A DNA stretch of 64,000 bases, taken from contig JBKAGP010000001.1 of NCBI GenBank assembly GCA_046290465.1, positions 2,144,001-2,208,000 of the forward strand, in the 5' to 3' direction. The translations under genes and the position numbers were made by a program. A model generated the notes under the pieces. The model was not told where the DNA came from. It was given only the letters and a program-made list of their open reading frames with translations, and made no database searches. The stretch is from Planctomycetota bacterium. Its GTDB lineage: Bacteria > Planctomycetota > UBA1135 > UBA2386. Numbering within the stretch: the first letter of the stretch is position 1; each line of letters begins with the position of its first letter. Shown here in pieces: positions 1 to 13,108 of this stretch.

Positions 1-2808
1 CTCCTGCGAGAAGGTCTCGAAGCGCTGCTGCCACTCGCTCTTGTCGGCGACGACGCGGGCGACCTGCACGGCGGTGACCTTGTACTCGGGGCAGTTGGTC
101 GCCCAGTCGCTGTTCTCGGTGGTGACGACGTTGGCGCCGCTCTCCGGATGGTGGAACGTCGTGTAGACGACGCCGGGCTGCATGCGGTCGCTGACGATCG
201 CGCGCATCGTGGTCTCGCCCTTTCGACTCTGCATCGACACCAGGTCGCCGTGCTCGATGCCGCGGGTCTCGGCGTCGTGCGCGTGGATCTCGAGCACGTC
301 CTCGTCGTGCCACTCCTGGTTGTGCGTGCGCCGCGTCTGCGCGCCGACGTTGTATTGGCTCAGGATGCGGCCGGTGGTCAGGATCAGCGGGAACTTCTTG
401 TTGGTGCGCTCCGGCGTCGCCAGGAACTCCGTCAGGAAGAACTTGCCCTTGCCGCGCACGAACTCCTTCTCGTGCATGTAGGGCGTGCCCTCGGGCGCCT
501 TGTCGTTGCACGGCCACTGGATGCTGCCGTGCTTGTCGAGCTTGCCGTAGCTGACGCCGGTGAACGTCGGGGTCAGCGCCGCGATCTCGTCCATGATCTG
601 GCTCGGGTGGTCGTAGCGCATCTCGAAGCCGAGCGCCTCGGCGAAGCGCACGGTGACCTCCCAGTCGGCCAGACCCGCCAGCGGCGGCATCACCTTGCGC
701 ACGCGGCTGATGCGCCGCTCGGCGTTGGTGAACGTGCCGTCTTTCTCCAAGAACGAGCTGCCCGGAAAGATCACGTGCGCGTACTTGGCGGTCTCGTTCA
801 AGAAGATGTCCTGCACGATCAGGCACTCGAGCGATTCCAGCGCCTGCTGCACGTGCTGCGTGTCCGGGTCGGACTGCGCGATGTCCTCGCCCTGCACGTA
901 CATCGCCTTGAACGAACCGTCGACCGCGGCATCGAACATGTTGGGGATGCGCAGGCCCGGCTCGGGCTGAATCTCGACCCCCCACCTGGCTTCGAACAGC
1001 GCGCGCACGTCCGGGTCCGACACGTGGCGGTAGCCCGGCAGTTCGTGCGGGAAGCTGCCCATGTCGCACGAGCCCTGCACGTTGTTCTGGCCGCGCAGCG
1101 GGTTCACGCCGACGCCGGGGCGGCCGATGTTGCCGGTGACCATCGCGAGGTTGGCGATGGTCATCACGCCGGTCGAGCCCTGGTGGTGCTCGGTGACGCC
1201 GAGGCCGTAGTAGATCGCGCCGTTGCGCGCCTTGGCGAACAGGCGCGCCGCACCGCGGATCTGCTCCGGCGGCACGCCGGTGTGCTCCTCGAGCGCCTCG
1301 GGCGAGTTGCGCTGGTCGCCGACGAAGGCCTTCCACTTCTGGTAGGCCTCCGGCTCGCAGCGCTCGGCGATGTAGTCCTTGGCCTCGAGGCCCTCGGTCA
1401 CGACCACGTGCGCGATCGCGTTCATCACCGCGACGTTGGCGCCGGGGCGCAGCTGCAGGTGGTAGTCGGCCTCGACGTGCGGCGTGCGCACCAGGTCGAT
1501 GCGGCGGGGGTCGATGACGATCAGGCCGGCACCTTCGCGCAGGCGCTGCTTCATGCGCGACGCGAACACCGGGTGGCCGTCGGTCGGGTTGGCGCCGATG
1601 ACGATCACGCAGTCGGTGTGCTCGACGCTGTCGAAGTCCTGCGTGCCGGCCGACTCGCCCAGCGTCGACTTGAGGCCGTAACCGGTCGGCGAGTGGCAGA
1701 CGCGCGCGCAGGTGTCGACGTTGTTGTTGCCGAAGCCGCCGCGGATCAGCTTCTGCACCAGGAAGGTCTCCTCGTTGGTGCAGCGCGAGCTGGTGATGCC
1801 GCCGACCGAGCCCTTGCCGTACTTGGCCTGGATCCGCTGGATCTCGCTGGCGGCGTATTCGAACGCCTCCTCCCAGCTGACCTCGCGCCATGGATCCTGG
1901 ATCGACTTGCGGATCATCGGCTGCTTGACGCGATCCGGGTGCGTCGCGTAGCCCCACGCGAAGCGCCCCTTGACGCAGCTGTGGCCGTGGTTCGCCTTGC
2001 CGTCCTTGTGCGGCACCATGCGCACGACCTCGCTACCCTGCATCTCGGCGCGGAACGAGCAGCCGACGCCGCAGTAGGCGCAGGTCGTGGTCACGGCGTG
2101 GTCGGGCTGGCCGGCGTCGACGATCGACTTCTCCATCAGCGTCGACGTCGGGCAGGCCTGCACGCAGGCGCCGCACGACACGCACTCGGAGTTCATGAAG
2201 TCGGTCGGGCCCGACGCGATCTTGCTGTCGAAGCCGCGGCCCTCGACGGTCAGCGCGAACGTGCCCTGGATCTCGTCGCAGGCGCGCACGCAGCGCGAGC
2301 AGACGATGCACTTGGTCGGATCGAAGGTGAAGTACGGGTTCGACTCGTCCTTGTCCTGGACCAGGTGGTTCTCGCCCTGGTAGCCGTAGCGCACGTCGCG
2401 CAGGCCGACCGCGCCGGCCATGTCCTGCAGTTCGCAGTTGCCGTTGGCCGGACAGGTCAGGCAGTCGAGCGGGTGGTCGCTGATGTAGAGCTCCATCACA
2501 CCGCGGCGCAGGTCGGCGAGCTTCTTGCTCTGCGTCGTGACCTGCATGCCGTCCTCGCACGGCGTCGTGCACGACGCCGGCGTGCCGCGCCGACCGTCGA
2601 TCTCGACCAGGCACAAACGGCAGCTCCCGAACGACTCGAGCGAGTCCGTCGCACACAGCTTGGGAACGTTGACGCCGGCCTCGGTGGCGGCGCGCATCAC
2701 CGACGTGCCGGCGGGCACGCAGACGGGCTTGCCGTCGATGTGGACGGTGACGGTTTGCTCGGACTGCCGCTTGGGAGTCCCGTAGTCGACGACCTTGTTG
2801 GAGTACAT
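1..2808 (-). CDS. fdsA: NAD-dependent formate dehydrogenase alpha subunit (FdsA/FdhF-type molybdopterin protein); 3' end runs off the window
   Basis: Not in the ORF track; translated by hand from the ATG at 2808: MYSNKVVDYGTP...IDGKPVCVPAGTSVMRAA...KLCATDSLESFGSCRLCLVEIDG (2Fe-2S), HPLDCLTCPANGNCELQD, CIVCSRCVRAC, CVSCGACVQACP, TTCAYCGVGC, CARVCHSPT, RGQNNVQG. Downstream of fdsG/fdsB. Confidence 0.95.
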   Translation of the reverse strand, partial: MYSNKVVDYGTPKRQSEQTVTVHIDGKPVCVPAGTSVMRAATEAGVNVPKLCATDSLESFGSCRLCLVEIDGRRGTPASCTTPCEDGMQVTTQSKKLADLRRGVMELYISDHPLDCLTCPANGNCELQDMAGAVGLRDVRYGYQGENHLVQDKDESNPYFTFDPTKCIVCSRCVRACDEIQGTFALTVEGRGFDSKIASGPTDFMNSECVSCGACVQACPTSTLMEKSIVDAGQPDHAVTTTCAYCGVGCSFRAEMQGSEVVRMVPHKDGKANHGHSCVKGRFAWGYATHPDRVKQPMIRKSIQDPWREVSWEEAFEYAASEIQRIQAKYGKGSVGGITSSRCTNEETFLVQKLIRGGFGNNNVDTCARVCHSPTGYGLKSTLGESAGTQDFDSVEHTDCVIVIGANPTDGHPVFASRMKQRLREGAGLIVIDPRRIDLVRTPHVEADYHLQLRPGANVAVMNAIAHVVVTEGLEAKDYIAERCEPEAYQKWKAFVGDQRNSPEALEEHTGVPPEQIRGAARLFAKARNGAIYYGLGVTEHHQGSTGVMTIANLAMVTGNIGRPGVGVNPLRGQNNVQGSCDMGSFPHELPGYRHVSDPDVRALFEARWGVEIQPEPGLRIPNMFDAAVDGSFKAMYVQGEDIAQSDPDTQHVQQALESLECLIVQDIFLNETAKYAHVIFPGSSFLEKDGTFTNAERRISRVRKVMPPLAGLADWEVTVRFAEALGFEMRYDHPSQIMDEIAALTPTFTGVSYGKLDKHGSIQWPCNDKAPEGTPYMHEKEFVRGKGKFFLTEFLATPERTNKKFPLILTTGRILSQYNVGAQTRRTHNQEWHDEDVLEIHAHDAETRGIEHGDLVSMQSRKGETTMRAIVSDRMQPGVVYTTFHHPESGANVVTTENSDWATNCPEYKVTAVQVARVVADKSEWQQRFETFSQE

Positions 2809-5740: not shown

Positions 5741-7270
5741 TCAGGCGAAGTCCTGGGGCCAGTGGTCGATCGCGCTGAGCACGGGGAGCGGGGTCAGGCC
5801 GCCCATGGCGCAGAGCGACGCGCTCGTCATCGTGCTGCAGAGGTCACGCAGCAGCTGTTCCTGCTTTGTGCGGTCGTCGCCGGCGGTCAGGCGGTCGAGG
5901 ACCTCGACGCCGCGGGTGCTGCCGATGCGGCACGGGGTGCACTTGCCGCACGACTCGATCGCGCAGAACTCCATCGCGTAGCGCGCCAGCTTGCTCATGT
6001 CGGCCGTATCGTCGAAGACCACGATGCCGCCGTGGCCGAGCAGGCCACCGGCACCGGCCAGCGCCTCGTAGTCGGCCGGCGTGTCGAACTTGCTCTCGGG
6101 CAGGTAGGCGCCGAGCGGGCCGCCGACCTGGATCGCCTTGATCGGACGACCGCTCGCCGAGCCACCGCCGAACTCGTAGAGCAGTTCGCGGATGGTCACG
6201 CCGAACGGCACCTCGACCAGCCCGCCCTGCTTGATGTTGCCGGCCAGCTGGAACGGCAGCGTGCCCTTGCTGCGACCGACCCCGTGGGCCGCGTAGGCCG
6301 CACCGCCGTGGTCGAGGATCCACGGGACCGCCGCCAGCGTCATCACGTTGTTGACGACCGTCGGCTTGCCCCACAGCCCCTCGAGCGCCGGCAGCGGCGG
6401 CTTGGCGCGCACGATGCCGCGCTTGCCCTCGAGGCTCTCGAGCATCGCGGTCTCCTCGCCGCACACGTAGCTGCCGGCACCGAGGCGAACGTGCAGCTCG
6501 AACGCCTTGCCACTGCCGAACACGTCGCCGCCGAGCATGCCGGCCGCGCGCGCCCGTTCGATCGCGGTCGTCAGCACGACGCGCGCGTCCGGATACTCGC
6601 TGCGCAGGTAGACGTAGCCCTCGGTCGCGCCGACCGCCAGGCCGGCGATCACCATGCCCTCGATCAGCAGGTAGGGATCGCCCTCCATGATCATGCGATC
6701 GGAGAACGTGCCGCTGTCGCCCTCGTCGGCGTTGCAGGCGATGTACTTCTGGTCGGCTTCGGCGCCGTGCACCGTCTGCCACTTGATGCCCGCCGGGAAG
6801 CCCGCGCCACCGCGGCCGCGCAGACCCGAGTCGACCACCTGCTGCACGATCGCCGCGCCGTCCATCGCCAGCGCCTTCTTCAGCCCGCGGGTGCCGCCGT
6901 GCTCGACGTAGGCGTCGTAGTCGAGCGGGTCGGTGATGCCGACGCGCTCGAACGTCAACCGCGTCTGCTTCTGCATCCACGGCAGCTCGTCGGTCCTGCC
7001 CAGCGCCAGCGCGTGGGAGCCGCCGCTCGCGAACGACGCGTCGAACAGGCCCGGCACGTCGGCCGCGGTGACCGGCCCGTAGGCAACCCGGCCGGCATCG
7101 GTGGCGACCTCGACCAGCGTCTCGAGCCACAGCATGCCGCGGGAGCCGTTGCGAACCAGCTGCACGTCGACGCCGCGGCTGCCCGCCTCGCGCACGATCG
7201 CGTCGGCGACCTCGTCGGCGCCCAGCGACAACGCCGCGCTGTCGCGCGGCACGAACACCTGGACGCTCAC
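5741..7270 (-). CDS. fdsB: Formate dehydrogenase beta subunit (NuoF-like, FMN/NADH-binding, 4Fe-4S)
   Basis: GLRGRGGAGFPAGIKW, CNADEGDSGTFSDR, GAGSYVCGEETA, ESCGKCTPCRIG. GTG start overlaps the fdsG stop (GTGA). Confidence 0.95.
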   Translation of the reverse strand: MSVQVFVPRDSAALSLGADEVADAIVREAGSRGVDVQLVRNGSRGMLWLETLVEVATDAGRVAYGPVTAADVPGLFDASFASGGSHALALGRTDELPWMQKQTRLTFERVGITDPLDYDAYVEHGGTRGLKKALAMDGAAIVQQVVDSGLRGRGGAGFPAGIKWQTVHGAEADQKYIACNADEGDSGTFSDRMIMEGDPYLLIEGMVIAGLAVGATEGYVYLRSEYPDARVVLTTAIERARAAGMLGGDVFGSGKAFELHVRLGAGSYVCGEETAMLESLEGKRGIVRAKPPLPALEGLWGKPTVVNNVMTLAAVPWILDHGGAAYAAHGVGRSKGTLPFQLAGNIKQGGLVEVPFGVTIRELLYEFGGGSASGRPIKAIQVGGPLGAYLPESKFDTPADYEALAGAGGLLGHGGIVVFDDTADMSKLARYAMEFCAIESCGKCTPCRIGSTRGVEVLDRLTAGDDRTKQEQLLRDLCSTMTSASLCAMGGLTPLPVLSAIDHWPQDFA

Positions 7271-7770
7271 CGGCCCGTCTCCTTCGCCTGCTGCAGCAAC
7301 GCGTCGAGGCGGGCGACCGAGACGCGGCCGTGCACCTTGTCGTCGATCATCACCGCCGGCGACAGCGCGCAGTTGCCGAGGCAGTAGACCGGCTCGACCG
7401 TGACCGCGCCGTCGGCAGTGGTCTCGCCCATCGCGACGCCGTGCCGTTCGAGCAGGTGGTCCTCGAGCTGCTCGCACCCCATCGCCTGGCACGACTCGGC
7501 GCGACAGACCTTGAGCACGTGGCGGCCCGGCTTGCTGGTGCGGAAGTCGTGGTAGTAGGTCAGCACACCGTGCACGTCGGCGCGCGACAGGTTCAGCGCG
7601 TCGGCGATCCGCTGGATCGCCTCGTGCGGCACGAAGCCGAGCTCTTCCTGGATCGCGTGCAGCATCGGCAGGCACGCGCCGCGCATGGTGGCGAGGCGGG
7701 AGATCGCCGCGTCGACCGCGGCGAGTTGTTCGGGCGTGGCAGGCTCGGCTGCCGAAGAGCTGGATTGCAT
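7267..7770 (-). CDS. fdsG: Formate dehydrogenase gamma subunit (NuoE-like 2Fe-2S)
   Basis: LHAIQEELGFVP, NLSRADVHGVLTYYHDF, VCRAESCQAMG, VYCLGNCALSP. Confidence 0.93.
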   Translation of the reverse strand: MQSSSSAAEPATPEQLAAVDAAISRLATMRGACLPMLHAIQEELGFVPHEAIQRIADALNLSRADVHGVLTYYHDFRTSKPGRHVLKVCRAESCQAMGCEQLEDHLLERHGVAMGETTADGAVTVEPVYCLGNCALSPAVMIDDKVHGRVSVARLDALLQQAKETGR

Positions 7771-7858
7771 GCGAGGGTCTGGAGGAACGTCGCGAAGTTT
7801 GTAGCAGAAACCGGCTATTGCACGCCACGGCCGGCCGGGCTTCCGCCATGCTGCGTAG

Positions 7859-8656
7859 ATGGACGCGCGGGCGCAACGCAAGGCACGCAAGGAGGCGGTC
7901 GACAAGATGTCCGCCGACCGGGAAGCCCGCGGTCGCAACAAGAAGCACGTCTCCGCGTTCCGCAAGTTCCGCCGCAAGGTCGGCGCTGCGCTGATCGAAT
8001 CGCTGGCGCCGCTGGTGCTGCGGGCGATCGCGCGCACCTGGCGGGTCGAGCGCACCGGCGAATCCGGCCAGGAGCTGATGAAGAGCGACCGGCCGTGGAT
8101 CTGCACGATGTGGCACGGGCGCATGCTGACGATGATGCCGATCCGGCTGCACTGCCGACGCGGGCTGTCGGTGCTGGTGTCCCCGAGCGACGACGGCGGC
8201 CTCGCCAAGCGGGCGCTCGACAAGTTCGGCTACCGGGTCGTGCGCGGCTCGCTGAGCAAGCGCGGCGCCCGCGCGATGCGCGAGATGCACGAGGTGCTCG
8301 AGCAGGGCGGCCAGCTGGTGATCACGCCGGACGGACCGCGCGGCCCGCGCCACAGCATCAACAGCGGCGCCGCGTGGCTGGCGCGCGCGACCGGCGCGCC
8401 GATCCTGCCGTGCTCGGTCGCGATGAGCCGGGCGTGGCGGTTCAACAGCTGGGACCGCATGACCATCCCCAAGCCGTTTGCGCGGGTGGTCGTGCACTAC
8501 GGCGACCCGGTGCACGTCGACCAGGGCTGCACCGACGAGCAGCTCGAGGAGCTGTCGGCGAAGCTGCGCGACGGCATGATCCGCGCCGAACAGGACGCGT
8601 TCGCGCAGCTCGAGGTCGGCTGCGACCTCGGCGAGCACGCCCGCCAGCAGGCGTGA
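7859..8656 (+). CDS. DUF374 / lysophospholipid acyltransferase family protein
   Basis: WHGR, LVSPSDDG, VVRGS..RGARA, ITPDGPRGPR, SWDR..IPKPF motifs. Confidence 0.85.
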   Translation: MDARAQRKARKEAVDKMSADREARGRNKKHVSAFRKFRRKVGAALIESLAPLVLRAIARTWRVERTGESGQELMKSDRPWICTMWHGRMLTMMPIRLHCRRGLSVLVSPSDDGGLAKRALDKFGYRVVRGSLSKRGARAMREMHEVLEQGGQLVITPDGPRGPRHSINSGAAWLARATGAPILPCSVAMSRAWRFNSWDRMTIPKPFARVVVHYGDPVHVDQGCTDEQLEELSAKLRDGMIRAEQDAFAQLEVGCDLGEHARQQA

Positions 8657-8868
8657 GTCGCGGGTCGGCCCGAGAGTCGGTCCGACGCGGCCGAAACCGG
8701 CCCTGAGGGGCTCCGCAGGGCATTCCGCGAGGGCACTTCGCGCGGGCACTTCGCGCGGCCCGGAACGAACGCGACCCGAACACTCCAGGGGAGCATCCGG
8801 GTCGTCGGCGAGCCAGCTGACCGAGGGGCGCGGAGGCATCCGCTCCCCCACCGGCTCGTAGGTGGTGC

Positions 8869-8947
8869 GTCCCTGGGACTGCGAGGTCCGGGACCAGATG
8901 TCCAGGACTGCAGGTCGGGACGAGAGGTCCTGGACTAGAGGTCCTGG
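8869..8947. repeat. Degenerate ~14-bp tandem repeat (about 6 units, GTCCNGGAC-like palindromic core) overlapping the histone gene stop codon
   Basis: Minus strand: ccaggacctcTAGt / ccaggacctctcgt / cccgacctgcagt / cctggacatctggt / cccggacctcgcagt / cccagggacgc. Confidence 0.65.
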
Positions 8948-9159
8948 GGACGGAGCGTCTTGCGACCGTTGGCCATCGCGCGGCTCTCGGCCTCGGCGAT
9001 CTTCTGACGGACGGCCTTGTCGAGAGCACCGTAGAACTCCGACGAGACGTTCGACTTCTTGACCGCGGCCTTGGTGCGCGACTTCGAGATGATCAGCTCC
9101 ACCGGGCCGGCGGCGCGGGCCTTCGAGGCCTTCTTCTTGGTCTTCTTCTTGGCAGCCAT
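8935..9159 (-). CDS. Bacterial histone-fold protein (short-alpha3 type) with Lys-rich N-terminal tail
   Basis: 74 aa; core ELIISKSRTKAAVKKSNVSSEFYGALDKAVRQKIAEAESRAMANGRKTLRPQDL ends in the histone-fold RKTxxxxD signature; tail MAAKKKTKKKASKARAAG. Confidence 0.85.
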   Translation of the reverse strand: MAAKKKTKKKASKARAAGPVELIISKSRTKAAVKKSNVSSEFYGALDKAVRQKIAEAESRAMANGRKTLRPQDL

Positions 9160-9330
9160 TGGATTCTCTGCTGTTAGAGGTTCTTCGTTCGCCCGGCCAC
9201 GACACAGTTGTCGTGCCCCCCGCGAACGGCGCGCAGTTTGACCGGGTCGCGAGATCTGTCAACAACAAAAACTGGACGGAAACCCCACCTGCGCGCCCGT
9301 TCTCGGCATTTGCGAACCGACACGGCTGCG

Positions 9331-9347: not shown

Positions 9348-9517
9348 GACACGGCGCGCCGCCGCCAAACGGCCGAATTCGAGGGGCTAGCAGGGGTTTC
9401 GCGGCGGTTCTGCCAAACCCCTCCGAAACGGCGTTAAACGGCCGAATTCAAGGGTTTCGGGATCCGTGCAGTCGGTGTGCGCGGGAACGGTTCGCATCGG
9501 ATAGAGTGCGCAGCCGC

Positions 9518-12500
9518 ATGAGCTGGCGCCGCATCCTGCTGTTGTCGATCGCGCTCGTTTCCGTGTTGGCCGTGGCCACATGGGCGTTGCTACAAAACTC
9601 CGACGTCGCGACGGAATTCGTGCGCCGCGAGGTGCAGAACGTGTTCGCGACGCGTGCCGAGGTCGCTTCGACGGCGATCGGACTCGAAGCCGGTCGGCTG
9701 CAGATCGAGGGCTTCGAGCTCGCCGATCCGACGCAGCCCGAGCGCGCCCTGGTGCGCATCGCCAAGGGCCGGCTCGATGCCCAGCTCGACCCGTTCGGCG
9801 CCGGCATCGCGCCGCGCCACGTGGTCGTCGAGGGCCTCGAGATCGAGGCCGGCCCGACGTTCCCGACCGCTGCGCAGCTGCTGAAGCCGCGCGAAGCGAG
9901 CACCGATGGCGGCGTCGACCTGGACCTGCCGGTGGTCGAGGTGCGCTCGGGCAAGGCCACCCTGCACCTGTGCGAGGACGAACGGCCGCTGGTGCTCGAC
10001 GGCCTCGACGTCACCGTCGTGCCCCACCACACCGATCGTCGCAAGCTGCAGATCACCGGCTCGCTCGCCCTGACCGAGCCCGCCGCGGCGCTGCAGCTGC
10101 GCGGCGAGGTCGACCTGGAGTCGGGTGCAGCCAGGCTGAGCATCTCGACCGAGGCGGTGACCTGCAGCCAGCAGGTGGTCGCCTACCTGGCGCGGCTGGC
10201 GCAGGTCGACCAGCAGGCGCTCGACGTCGGCGGCGAGATCGAGTCGCTGCGCGTGACCTGCCTGATTCCGCCTCACACCGCGGCCGTGCGCACGCCGACC
10301 TTCGAGGTCGAGGCCCGCTGCAGCGACGTGCACGTCAACGCGCCGGACCTGCCGGCGATCGTGCGGCACGCCGACGTGCAGCTGCTGGTCAGCACCGCGC
10401 AGGGCGGCGTCGTGCAGGCGACGATCTCGCAGCACAACGAGACCGGCGCCATCGACGTGCGCGCGCGGATCACCGAGCTGGACGCCAGCGGCGACGACCT
10501 GCCCAAGCTCGAGCTCGACGCCAAGGGCCGCGACGTCGTCGTCGATGGCAACGTGCTCGCCGCCCTGCGCACGTTCCCGATCGGCAAGCGGGTGGTCGAA
10601 GCGCTGCGGCCGACCGCCGGCCGTGCCGACATCGACCTCTACCTCCACAATCCGCACATCCCGGGCGGCGACGCCGAGATCGACCTGCAGCTGCGCGACG
10701 TCGCGATGTCGTTCCACGGCTTCGGGGACGGCGAGCAGCGCATCGGCTTCCCGATGCCGCTCGAGCACGCCAGCGGCCGCGTGCGCCTGCGCAACGACAT
10801 CCTGCTGCTGCGCGACATGAAGGCGTCGATCCCGGCGAGCGCCGGCGGCGGCGAGGTGACGCTGCGCGGCCGCATCGAGGTCCGCCGAGGCCGCGGGGAC
10901 GACACCAGCCTCGACATCGAGGGCACCGGGGTGGCGTTCCGCGACGACCTGCGCACGGCGCTGGCCACGCTGCTGCGCGACGACGGCGAACTCTACGACC
11001 GCCTGGCGCCCGAGGGGCGCGCCGACGTGCACGTCGTGGTGCGGCCGCGCAGCGAACTGGCCGGCGGCTTCGGCGTCGAGGTCACTCCGCAGGGTGCGTC
11101 GATGCGCTGGGCGGGCTTTCCGTACGAGCTGAAGGACCTGCGCGGCAGCATCCGCGTGCGCATGGCCGATGCGCGCTTCGACCTGACCGGTCGGCACGGC
11201 GACGGCGGCCTGACGATGCGCGGCCGCATCCCGCTCGACAAGCAGCACGGCCCCGAGGACGGCTTCGAGGCGGTGATCGACCTCGACCAGCTGGCCGTCG
11301 ACGACGACCTGCGCCAGGGCGTCGCGGTGGTCGTGCGCGAACTCGACGCCCAGTGGCAGAAGGCGATGCCGAGCGGCCGGCTGTCCGGCAAGGTCAAGGT
11401 CTGGCGGCCGCTGCACGACGACCCGTTGTTCCACGACGTGCGCCTGCAGCTCGACGACGTCGATCTCGATCTGCCGCTGGCCCCGTGGCGCGCGACCGGC
11501 CTGCGCGGCCAGGTGCTGGTGCAGGGGTCCGGCCCGACCGCGCGCATCGACTTCGACGCGCTGCGCGGCAGCCTCACCAACGGCGTCGCCGAACCGGCCC
11601 GACTGGCCCTGCTCGGCCACCTCGAGTCGGGCCCCGACGTGGTGCGCGACCTCGCGTTCGTGGTGCGGGACCTGGAGCTGTGCGAACAGCTCGGCAAGAG
11701 CCTCGACGACCTCGGCGCGCTCGGCTTCGAGACCTGGGACTCGCTGCAGCCGTCCGGACGCGTCGACCTGGTCGTGCGCGAACGCTTGCAGCCCGAGTCC
11801 GACCCGGACCTGCAGGTCGTCGTGCAGCTGGTCGACGTGCGTTCCGACGCGCGCATGCTGCCCAAGCCGGCCGAGCACATGACCGGCGAACTGCACATCG
11901 AGGGCGGTGAGCTGACGTTCCGCGACGTGCGCGGCGAACTCGGCGGCGCCACCGTGCGCTGCTACAACGGCCGCGTGCGGCAGGTCGGCGCCGACGACGA
12001 CCGCACCGAGATCGCGTTCGACGTGCACGCCAAGGACTTCCCGGTCGACGACGGCCTCGCCAACCTGTTCACCGGCCCGCTGCGCAAGGCGGTGCTCGAC
12101 CGGCACCTGCGCGGCAAGGCCGACGTCGACGGCCTGCGGCTGCGGTTCCGCGTGCCGGGCCCCGACAGCGGCAAGCCGTTCACGACCACGATCGGCGGCG
12201 CGATCGGGCTCGACGGCGTCGACATGCAGCTCGGCACCGGCCGCGACGGCATCCGCGTGCTCAACCTGCACGGCATGGTGTCGCTCGCCGACAGCACCGT
12301 CACCGAGACCGGCGGCCAGCTGGTCGGCACGCTGTCGCGCGGCTCGCTGTCGCTGTTCGGACACCCGTTCGAGGCGGTCGAGACGACCTTCACGGCGGAC
12401 GCCAGGAAGTTGACGATCCACACCCTCAAGACCCGCATCCACGACGGCGAGCTGCGCCACGCCAAGACCGACGCGCCGGCGCTCAGCTACCTGCTGCCGG

Positions 12501-13108
12501 CGGCGAACGTGCCGGAGGGCCGGCTGTCGGCGGACCTGCAGTTCGACCGGGTCGACGTGTTCACGCTGCTGTCGACGTCGGGCTGGCGCAACCCGCCCTA
12601 CACCGGCCTGGCCAGCGGTCGCATGACGCTGAGCCGACTCGACGGCAACAACGTGGTCGGCGCCGAGGCGGCCGGCACGCTGCAGATCGAACGCGCCGAC
12701 CTCGGCAAGGTGCCGCTGTTCACCGCGATCTACGCGCAGCTGCCGCCGGCCAACCAGCCGCGCTTCAACCAGCTCGACATGACGTTCCGGCTGACGGACC
12801 ACCTGATGAGCTTCGACCGCCTCGAGGTGCGCTCGGAGATCCTCGCGGCCAAGGGCAGCGGCAAGCTCAACCTCGACGGCTACCTCGACGTCGAGATGGA
12901 GCTCGACAACCTGCTCGGCCAGTCGGCGGATCCGCTGGTCATGCCGCTGATCGACTACCTCGCCAAGAACCTGGTCAGCTTCCGCCTCTACGGCCACCTG
13001 CGCGACCTGCATGCGTCGACCGAGTTCCTCGGTTCGCGCACGCCGGATCGGCCGCCGGTGCTGCCGATGCCGCCGAAGCGGCCGAAGAGCAGTTCGCCCG
13101 GATATTGA
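9518..13108 (+). CDS. AsmA-like/YhdP-like large beta-repeat envelope protein
   Basis: N-terminal membrane anchor, ~1190 aa of repeating beta segments (LRGSIRV, MTGELHIEGGELTFRDVRG), C-terminal AsmA-like region (F.QLDMTFRL...GSGKLNLDGYLD). Confidence 0.75.
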   Translation: MSWRRILLLSIALVSVLAVATWALLQNSDVATEFVRREVQNVFATRAEVASTAIGLEAGRLQIEGFELADPTQPERALVRIAKGRLDAQLDPFGAGIAPRHVVVEGLEIEAGPTFPTAAQLLKPREASTDGGVDLDLPVVEVRSGKATLHLCEDERPLVLDGLDVTVVPHHTDRRKLQITGSLALTEPAAALQLRGEVDLESGAARLSISTEAVTCSQQVVAYLARLAQVDQQALDVGGEIESLRVTCLIPPHTAAVRTPTFEVEARCSDVHVNAPDLPAIVRHADVQLLVSTAQGGVVQATISQHNETGAIDVRARITELDASGDDLPKLELDAKGRDVVVDGNVLAALRTFPIGKRVVEALRPTAGRADIDLYLHNPHIPGGDAEIDLQLRDVAMSFHGFGDGEQRIGFPMPLEHASGRVRLRNDILLLRDMKASIPASAGGGEVTLRGRIEVRRGRGDDTSLDIEGTGVAFRDDLRTALATLLRDDGELYDRLAPEGRADVHVVVRPRSELAGGFGVEVTPQGASMRWAGFPYELKDLRGSIRVRMADARFDLTGRHGDGGLTMRGRIPLDKQHGPEDGFEAVIDLDQLAVDDDLRQGVAVVVRELDAQWQKAMPSGRLSGKVKVWRPLHDDPLFHDVRLQLDDVDLDLPLAPWRATGLRGQVLVQGSGPTARIDFDALRGSLTNGVAEPARLALLGHLESGPDVVRDLAFVVRDLELCEQLGKSLDDLGALGFETWDSLQPSGRVDLVVRERLQPESDPDLQVVVQLVDVRSDARMLPKPAEHMTGELHIEGGELTFRDVRGELGGATVRCYNGRVRQVGADDDRTEIAFDVHAKDFPVDDGLANLFTGPLRKAVLDRHLRGKADVDGLRLRFRVPGPDSGKPFTTTIGGAIGLDGVDMQLGTGRDGIRVLNLHGMVSLADSTVTETGGQLVGTLSRGSLSLFGHPFEAVETTFTADARKLTIHTLKTRIHDGELRHAKTDAPALSYLLPAANVPEGRLSADLQFDRVDVFTLLSTSGWRNPPYTGLASGRMTLSRLDGNNVVGAEAAGTLQIERADLGKVPLFTAIYAQLPPANQPRFNQLDMTFRLTDHLMSFDRLEVRSEILAAKGSGKLNLDGYLDVEMELDNLLGQSADPLVMPLIDYLAKNLVSFRLYGHLRDLHASTEFLGSRTPDRPPVLPMPPKRPKSSSPGY

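Follow-up and report, generated by a model that had tools for sequence, protein, structure and literature searches.

Does a short open reading frame (ORF) in a Planctomycetota genome encode a histone and, if so, to which kind does the protein belong and what might its lysine-rich N-terminus contribute? The ORF lies at 8935..9159 on the minus strand of a 64,000-nucleotide stretch, referred to here as the window, which comprises positions 2,144,001 to 2,208,000 of contig JBKAGP010000001.1 (assembly GCA_046290465.1). Bacterial histones were recognised only recently. Hocher et al. 2023 (PMC10627809) report that histone genes persist in Planctomycetota, and Schwab 2024 (PMC11390915) names this phylum among the main ones with face-to-face (FtF) histones. 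The analysis described below makes it very likely that the product is a bacterial histone of the FtF, alpha3-truncated type, packages DNA as a component of the nucleoid, assembles into a tetramer and carries a tail with an electrostatic function. The gene and its two parts are as follows.

8935..9159, minus strand: FtF histone gene, a monocistronic ORF with an ATG start, 74 codons and a TAG stop.
9100..9159, minus strand: N-terminal tail of the histone (codons 1-20), rich in Lys and Ala, with seven Lys and one Arg, a net charge of +8 and predicted disorder.
8938..9099, minus strand: histone-fold core (codons 21-74), with three predicted helices: alpha1 (residues 26-32), alpha2 (40-63) and alpha3 (71-73, one turn).

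The ORF is a real gene and not a chance reading frame of a GC-rich genome, because it has 1396 homologues, is present in single copy and is kept across its genus and family. Specifically, a word-index protein search returned these 1396 homologues at E ≤ 1e-3, and the best 120 of them were mostly 66-77 amino acids long. An exhaustive search matched 132 representatives clustered at 50% identity, 41 of them at E ≤ 1e-10. The organism's own genome, assembled as one 6.59-Mb contig with a completeness of 94%, has one copy. All 14 genomes searched from the same genus had a match, as did 23 of 24 from the family; further afield, 10 of 16 genomes belonging to the order's remaining families and 38 of 151 from a phylum-wide sample had one. 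Based on the record labels of 80 genome loci, the nearest loci were mostly from Planctomycetota metagenome-assembled genomes, and more distant ones were labelled Eisenbacteria, Myxococcota, Deltaproteobacteria, Gemmatimonadota or Spirochaetales. The 74-residue protein has a mass of 8.0 kDa and a pI of 10.7. The net charges computed from the translation were +8 for residues 1-20 and +6 for the core, residues 21-74.

Presence of the gene in RNA libraries was evaluated using a 2001-base query. In four runs recorded as metatranscriptomes (four studies), contigs from environmental relatives covered just 8810-9213 of this query: the histone gene with its 3' region and no less than 54 nt of leader. 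Coverage was zero over both flanking genes. The empty flanks argue against DNA carry-over; they serve solely as an internal control for this and say nothing of how strongly the neighbours are expressed. One contig corresponded to 9043-9213 with no mismatch, spanning the tail codons and 54 nt of leader. The histone gene is probably well expressed.

The product has an alpha3-truncated histone fold, as judged from structure prediction. Using an alignment of 109 homologue rows (A1) as input, AlphaFold2 yielded a model with a mean predicted local distance difference test score (pLDDT) of 80.9. Blocks of the core scored 88-95, and residues 1-20 scored about 50 (block means 53 and 48), which points to disorder. 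The predicted helices span residues 26-32, 40-63 and 71-73, an arrangement of helix, loop, long helix, loop and short helix that is that of the histone fold. Alpha3-truncated histones have an alpha3 of 3-4 residues together with an RxTxxxxD motif; here the third helix is residues 71-73, and R66, T68 and D73 were invariant in A1. Foldseek searches of the PDB placed only chains of HBb, HTkC or HLp at ranks 1-9, with rmsd values of 1.1-2.2 Å over 55-57 columns and target-normalised TM scores of 0.76-0.87. The E-values of these matches were just 4e-3 to 3.5e-2 because the domain is short. Eukaryotic histone-fold proteins ranked below the prokaryotic ones.

Sequence searches gave a similar set of proteins. 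Using the single protein as query in phmmer, the closest PDB match was HTkC (9f2c; 1.6e-4), followed by HBb, also known as Bd0055 (0.017-0.02). The A1 profile matched HTkC at 2.5e-16, HLp (9qt0) at 1.7e-11, HBb at 1.1e-8 and HmvA at 2.4e-4; matches below HmvA, to HMfA, NF-Y and H2B, were weak.

The subfamily was determined from residues that discriminate between histone groups. According to Schwab 2024 (PMC11390915), FtF histones are defined by a predicted tetramer together with residues R48, N52, R54, T56 and D61 of a hidden Markov model logo. The same source describes R48 and N52 as forming the dimer-dimer contacts, and the 'bacterial dimer' group of Bd0055/HBb as being without both. The window protein carries the signature as R60-x3-N64-x-R66-x-T68-x4-D73, at a spacing identical to that of the logo. 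The full signature was present in 120 of the 120 nearest clusters and in 101 of the 132 representatives, occurring once in 84 and twice in 17 (doublets). R60, N64, R66, T68 and D73 were also the sole invariant columns of A1, a result that is partly circular, 52 of the 109 rows having been selected by the FtF motif. R60 aligns with R45 of HTkC. In that protein, the substitution R45A altered the DNA-binding mode, and loss of R45 is discussed as a possible origin of bacterial dimer histones (preprint 10.64898/2025.12.06.692711).

Multimer modelling, which the initial annotation had proposed, predicted a tetramer interface. A four-copy complex yielded an interaction prediction score from aligned errors (ipSAE) of 0.86 in each of three runs versus 0.00 for the best of three controls. 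The runs had at least 94% of contacts in common, and partner pLDDT was at least 78. In the calibration of this approach, the mark was reached by 20 of 30 homo-pairs of known structure and by 1 of 23 single chains; the calibration relied on two copies and on alignments generated by the tool itself and is only roughly valid for four copies. The modelled contacts with the handshake mate involved residues 21-74, and those with the second dimer involved residues 59-60, 62-64, 66 and 70-73. The predicted dimers thus meet at alpha3 and the final ~8 residues of alpha2, as is characteristic of FtF tetramers. Residues 21-25 from both chains of the modelled dimer paired together, and the tail made zero contacts in the tetramer model.

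Because of the signature, the order of the profile scores (HTkC and HLp above HBb) and the modelled dimer-dimer interface, the protein is assigned to the FtF histones and not to the Bd0055-type dimers. Bacterial dimers lack R48 and N52 and show no confident multimer beyond the dimer, whereas R60 and N64 are present here and a tetramer interface is predicted. The initial annotation had likened the protein to Bd0055. This was correct for the superfamily and wrong for the subfamily, as the protein carries the FtF residues R60 and N64. The histone fold of the alpha3-truncated prokaryotic type that it had claimed agrees with the AlphaFold2 helices, Foldseek ranks 1-9 and the A1 profile.

The tail matched its first description, an 18-residue basic segment with seven Lys ahead of a core of ~55 residues: in the translation, residues 1-18 contain seven Lys and one Arg, and the core is 54 residues long and ends in RAMANGRKTLRPQDL. 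The ATG at 9159 is the earliest ATG, GTG or TTG of the open frame, and the only in-frame start option between it and the core is the GTG of Val20. Basic tails were found in 118 of the 120 nearest clusters, comprising 105 of the MA(A/K/R)(K/R/P) type, 10 with the same tail behind an over-extended gene call and three with another basic tail. The remaining two were annotated as starting MIISK. Conservation of the tail was also surveyed at the DNA level in 80 genome loci, two of which were cut by a contig end, leaving 78 evaluable loci. In 74 of the 78, spanning several phylum labels, an ATG opens a basic tail of the MA(A/K)K type, and in most of the 74 the tail ATG was the last in-frame start codon ahead of the core. 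The 74 tails printed were 6 to 40 residues long. A separate tally gave a median length of 17 residues and a composition of 30.5% Lys, 25.7% Ala and 9.6% Gly, and the first four residues were MAAK, MAAR or MAKK in 63 of the 78 loci; in this tally, a too-far-upstream ATG was chosen in a few loci (e.g., L022), which makes its length extremes and its list of low-charge tails slightly off.

Initiation signals were evaluated in the same loci. A Shine-Dalgarno core was present at -18..-4 of the tail ATG in 39 of 74 loci versus 5 of 74 in a control window. In the window genome's own clade, an upstream comparison found no canonical Shine-Dalgarno core ahead of the ATG; in this clade, an alignment of 12 upstream sequences, which is not a subset of the 74 loci, revealed a AGCAGAGAA-like block kept immediately 5' of the ATG. 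Judging from these comparisons, the tail is a conserved, translated feature of this clade; its composition and start are kept, but its sequence past the first 4-5 residues and its length are not. Hocher et al. 2023 (PMC10627809) describe most bacterial singlet histones as being without long tails. Among bacterial FtF histones, a basic tail is the norm and not the exception, according to Schwab 2024 (PMC11390915), and for this group the earlier claim that most prokaryotic histones lack tails was wrong. Our search of a literature library found no paper testing the function of a bacterial histone tail.

Two further groups of relatives differ in their tails. In P0126, P0140, P0148, P0167, P0234, P0247, L031 and L059, the tails are 30 to ~50 residues long and rich in Lys, Ala and Thr, with KKA/KKT-type repeats; these very long tails recall those of linker histones. 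P0136, P0162, L041 and L054 are tailless and, with the long-tailed forms, constitute a natural series for studies of tail function.

Based on the model and on the characterized FtF histones, DNA packaging by this protein would proceed in the following manner. Two chains would form a handshake dimer, and two dimers would associate into a tetramer via the last turns of alpha2 and the short alpha3, using R60, N64, R66 and D73. By analogy to HLp and HTkC, DNA would wrap non-specifically around this tetramer, about 60 bp of it in the case of HLp. The likely DNA contacts are a Ser/Lys ridge of alpha1 (S27, R28 and K30) and the L2 loop (R66, K67 and T68). The 20-residue Lys/Ala-rich tail is translated and predicted to be disordered, and its role is most likely electrostatic. 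Four tails would add a charge of ~+32 per tetramer (4 × +8) and could thereby raise the non-specific affinity for DNA. Since residues 21-25 of the two chains pair in the model, both tails of a dimer may exit side by side at the alpha1 face, onto or between DNA. The tails might clamp or neutralise the wrapped DNA and possibly bridge neighbouring duplexes. Of this scheme, the analysis shows the fold, the FtF signature, the conservation of the tail and the occurrence of the gene in RNA libraries; the assembly of tetramers in vivo, the wrapping of DNA and the function of the tail are inferred.

Upstream of the gene, we identified a conserved, covarying 5' leader hairpin, which is new in this analysis, and a promoter-like element.

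9187..9227, minus strand: leader stem-loop, 28-68 nt 5' of the ATG, whose outer stem (GTTCGC/GCGAAC) is invariant and whose inner stem covaries.
9235..9262, minus strand: putative promoter-like element, TTGACA (9262-9257), 16 nt and CAAACT (9240-9235).

RNAalifold analysis of 22 sequences yielded a hairpin of 14 pairs, five of them with compensatory changes. In the alignment, 97.3% of cells were paired versus 28-52% when the partners were slid, and five pairs changed on both sides versus 0-2 in the slid controls. None of 500 shuffles reached the observed values. The leader of the window itself had a minimum free energy of -30.8 kcal/mol (z -2.57), and 3 of 200 shuffles folded as well. Searches of Rfam returned no match for the leader. 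A sub-threshold match to Actinomyces-1 (22.5 bits versus a gathering score of 39.1) was judged to be due to chance, being below the gathering score and on the wrong strand. The TTGAC and CAAACT block was conserved across the upstream regions of 12 related loci, with the stem-loop ~8 nt downstream. A consensus promoter scan returned 0 sites: it missed TTGACA-N16-CAAACT, whose -10 hexamer is weak. If transcription starts as this element suggests, the mRNA may begin with the hairpin. The hairpin could stabilise the transcript or serve in autoregulation, and it represents a small new lead on the expression of highly basic proteins.

Some features of these flanks were noted in addition. In relatives, at loci L007-L037, the hairpin is placed at about -70 to -25 of the histone ATG. 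By eye, another clade (L014, L033, L039 and L045-L047) seems to have a different hairpin at the same place. Directly 3' of the stop codon, at 8886-8935 on the minus strand, is a stem-loop of -23.4 kcal/mol (z -2.45, with 2 of 200 shuffles as good) with no U-tract after it, which may be a non-canonical terminator or a stabiliser. The terminator scan returned two sites, in line with the shuffled expectation of 0.9. The RNA contigs of relatives have 66 different letters in place of 68 nt of this region (8863-8932).

Several other explanations of the gene were weighed. The protein might be a 'bacterial dimer' histone like HBb/Bd0055, remaining dimeric and bending or coating DNA with no wrapping around a tetramer. 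Indeed, the top two Foldseek matches were HBb chains, 9ezz_B and 8fvx (4.4e-3 and 5.0e-3), HBb was among the sequence matches of the single protein, and both groups have a truncated alpha3 along with the RKT and Ser-Lys motifs; Schwab 2024 (PMC11390915) also reports bacterial dimers in Planctomycetota. We nevertheless regard a dimeric histone as quite improbable: the counterparts of R48 and N52, which that source describes as missing from bacterial dimers, are present in this protein and in all 120 nearest clusters, the E-values from the A1 profile were lower for the FtF structures than for HBb by 3 to 8 orders of magnitude, and the dimer-dimer interface of the four-copy model uses exactly R60 and N64. 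The initial annotation had itself raised the objection that the true start might lie downstream of the tail. Initiation at the GTG of Val20 would yield a tailless histone of 55 residues, and the GTG at codon 20, the lack of a canonical Shine-Dalgarno core before the ATG in the clade, the two clusters annotated from MIISK and the existence of tailless relatives are consistent with it. Such a start is very hard to reconcile with the other data: 74 of 78 loci retain the reading frame, the Lys-rich composition and the MA(A/K)K start, most of the 74 lack any in-frame start codon from the tail ATG to the core, a Shine-Dalgarno core is well placed before the tail ATG in about half of them, near relatives keep the AGCAGAGAA-like block just 5' of the ATG, and the RNA contigs take in the tail codons and leader.

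A third proposal concerns the tail alone and is compatible with the FtF tetramer reading: the tail would be a eukaryote-like regulatory platform whose lysines are reversibly acetylated or methylated, thereby tuning the structure of the nucleoid. The likeness claimed in the initial annotation holds in that the tail is disordered (pLDDT ~50), basic, Lys-rich and N-terminal, and it fails with respect to position-specific conserved residues with a linked writer or eraser. In favour of modification are the recurrent MAAK, MAAR or MAKK start and a SET-domain ORF, the only one in the genome (G000:C1:3591047-3591184, 180 amino acids; locus L087, ORF 1339-1881, minus strand), which scored 32.8 bits versus a Pfam cut-off of 22.4. 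SET genes were found in 31 of 151 phylum-wide genomes versus 1 of 14 control genomes. In the order-level sample, they were present in 21 of 34 histone-bearing genomes versus 1 of 7 genomes without the histone, and in the phylum sample in 9 of 38 histone-bearing genomes versus 22 of 113 others; the genomes in both cross-tabulations are related and incomplete. The order-level pattern is probably due to shared ancestry, and the SET-domain methyltransferase was dropped as a candidate tail writer, the association having vanished at the phylum scale. Moreover, no modifying enzyme is encoded beside the histone gene, where the neighbours are NuoE/F-like, DUF374 and AsmA/YhdP-like, and an electrostatic role fits better with a tail that is kept in composition and not in sequence, at lengths of 6-40 residues. 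These results gave no support to the suggestion that the tail is potentially modifiable, and we consider a regulatory platform unlikely. A bolder version would join the tail and the leader hairpin into a regulated chromatin module, in which the lysines are reversibly modified or drive compaction beyond that of an HLp-type tetramer, and the hairpin controls synthesis or stability of its own mRNA via the histone or another factor. Such a module would amount to a histone-dosage circuit in a bacterium, and it too is improbable.

The FtF tetramer with an electrostatic tail is thus the preferred reading, and a number of observations weigh against it. With respect to the assembly, the score of the tetramer model may partly stem from similar tetramers that were already solved, those of HTkC and HLp (9F2C and 9QT0), and that the model could have memorised, and the output does not separate a closed torus from an open tetramer. 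With respect to the family, curated models give no support: the histone protein had no match in Pfam and NCBIfam at E ≤ 10. DUF1931 (PF09123) matched nothing in the whole genome, and CBFD_NFYB_HMF (PF00808) did not match the histone and gave just a 13-bit match elsewhere in the genome. Some NCBI records call close relatives 'DUF1931 domain-containing protein'. With respect to the tail, 4 of the 78 evaluable loci are without a basic one: L041 (MAD) and L054 (MAE) are tailless, and the other two have only a short segment, acidic in L043 and neutral in L086. Similarly, 15 of 80 evaluable single-domain representatives at 50% identity had five or fewer residues ahead of the core; 34 had a clearly basic segment there and 31 were classed as other, a class that includes over-extended gene calls. 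Because natural relatives without a basic tail exist, the tail is dispensable for the fold. The RNA contigs come from relatives and carry no levels, strand or transcript ends. Finally, the genome has four matches to the HU/IHF family (PF00216), at 465824-466096, 2030679-2030945, 2497627-2497881 and 4029574-4029798 of G000:C1, so the histone has other nucleoid proteins beside it and may not be the chief one among them.

Among known systems, the closest bacterial counterpart is HLp of Leptospira perolatii (PDB 9QT0, 9QT1 and 9QT2), which before the HTkC preprint was reportedly the only functionally characterized FtF histone (10.64898/2025.12.06.692711). Hu et al. 2025 (PMC12701072) report that HLp is a tetramer that wraps about 60 bp and reorganises the Escherichia coli nucleoid, and describe Leptospira as having neither HU nor Dps; HLp has been proposed as the principal nucleoid protein there. 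Like HLp, the window protein is bacterial, single-domain and alpha3-truncated, with the R...N.R.T....D signature. The two are matched by the A1 profile (1.7e-11), superpose with an rmsd of 1.1-1.2 Å over 56 columns and share the NCBI name 'DUF1931 domain-containing protein'; the tetramer is shown for HLp and predicted here. Their identity is just 28%. The stretch ahead of the HLp core that is visible in the alignment is short and has one Lys, in contrast to the 20-residue tail with a net charge of +8, and the four HU/IHF-family matches of the window genome contrast with the reported lack of HU and Dps in Leptospira (PMC12701072). The HLp gene neighbours SMC, MAP and DUF350, as opposed to AsmA/YhdP-like and DUF374 genes here.

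The best PDB sequence match, HTkC of Thermococcus kodakarensis (9F2C; PMC11390915), has 35-39% identity and an rmsd of 1.1 Å for chain B. Its DNA-contact residues S8, K9, K11, R51, K52 and T53, as given in the preprint (10.64898/2025.12.06.692711), align with S27, R28, K30, R66, K67 and T68. Unlike the window protein, HTkC is archaeal and tailless, has Glu at the position of N64, and its minor-groove residue R22 aligns with N37. HBb/Bd0055 of Bdellovibrio bacteriovorus (8CMP, 8FVX and 9EZZ; PMC10627809, PMC11317129) likewise has a truncated alpha3 and shares the RKT...D and alpha1 Ser-Lys motifs, at 31-32% identity and an rmsd of 1.3-1.4 Å. It differs in having Ser in place of R60 and Asp in place of N64, in being dimeric and bending DNA, and in having no Lys-rich tail. 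The window histone is thus of a known kind, its tail is a known trait of bacterial FtF histones, and the picture of the family is unchanged. It is a clean single-copy tailed example from a closed 6.59-Mb genome, which makes it a practical candidate for studying what a basic tail adds.

Basic extensions occur on other small DNA-binding proteins. Mycobacterial MDP1/HupB is a nucleoid protein with a Lys/Ala-rich, disordered extension at its C-terminus, and the N-terminal extension of Deinococcus HU and the C-terminal domain of eukaryotic H1 are similar. All of these share with the window histone a low-complexity, K/A-rich disordered segment on a small DNA-binding fold, plausibly adding electrostatic DNA affinity and compaction. 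They are analogous and not homologous: the folds are HU or winged-helix and not histone, and the extensions of MDP1 and H1 are C-terminal.

The genes surrounding the histone gene are as follows.

5741-7800, minus strand: NuoF-like (Complex1_51K and NADH_4Fe-4S) and NuoE-like (2Fe-2S thioredoxin-like) genes.
7859-8656, plus strand: DUF374 acyltransferase gene, convergent with the histone gene.
9506-13108, plus strand: AsmA/YhdP-like gene of 1200 amino acids, divergent from the histone gene; its product has an N-terminal hydrophobic segment and no Pfam match.

The look-alikes of the 9506-13108 product were AsmA/YhdP/DUF748-type envelope proteins, as found by a search of language-model features only. 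Among the 80 loci, the 1200-residue neighbour was kept beside the histone, in the divergent arrangement, in 31 (down to ~26% identity), DUF374 in 20 and NuoE/F in 9. A functional link between the histone and these neighbours was dropped, the conservation being read as lineage synteny and not as a link to chromatin.

Two further observations were made. Three relatives of 148-175 amino acids, P0183, P0214 and P0244, have tandem-doublet histone domains behind a hydrophobic, signal-peptide-like N-terminus, which is odd for a DNA-binding protein. The window is GC-rich and contains many long spurious ORFs on both strands, including one of 1203 amino acids that runs through the region of the histone gene.

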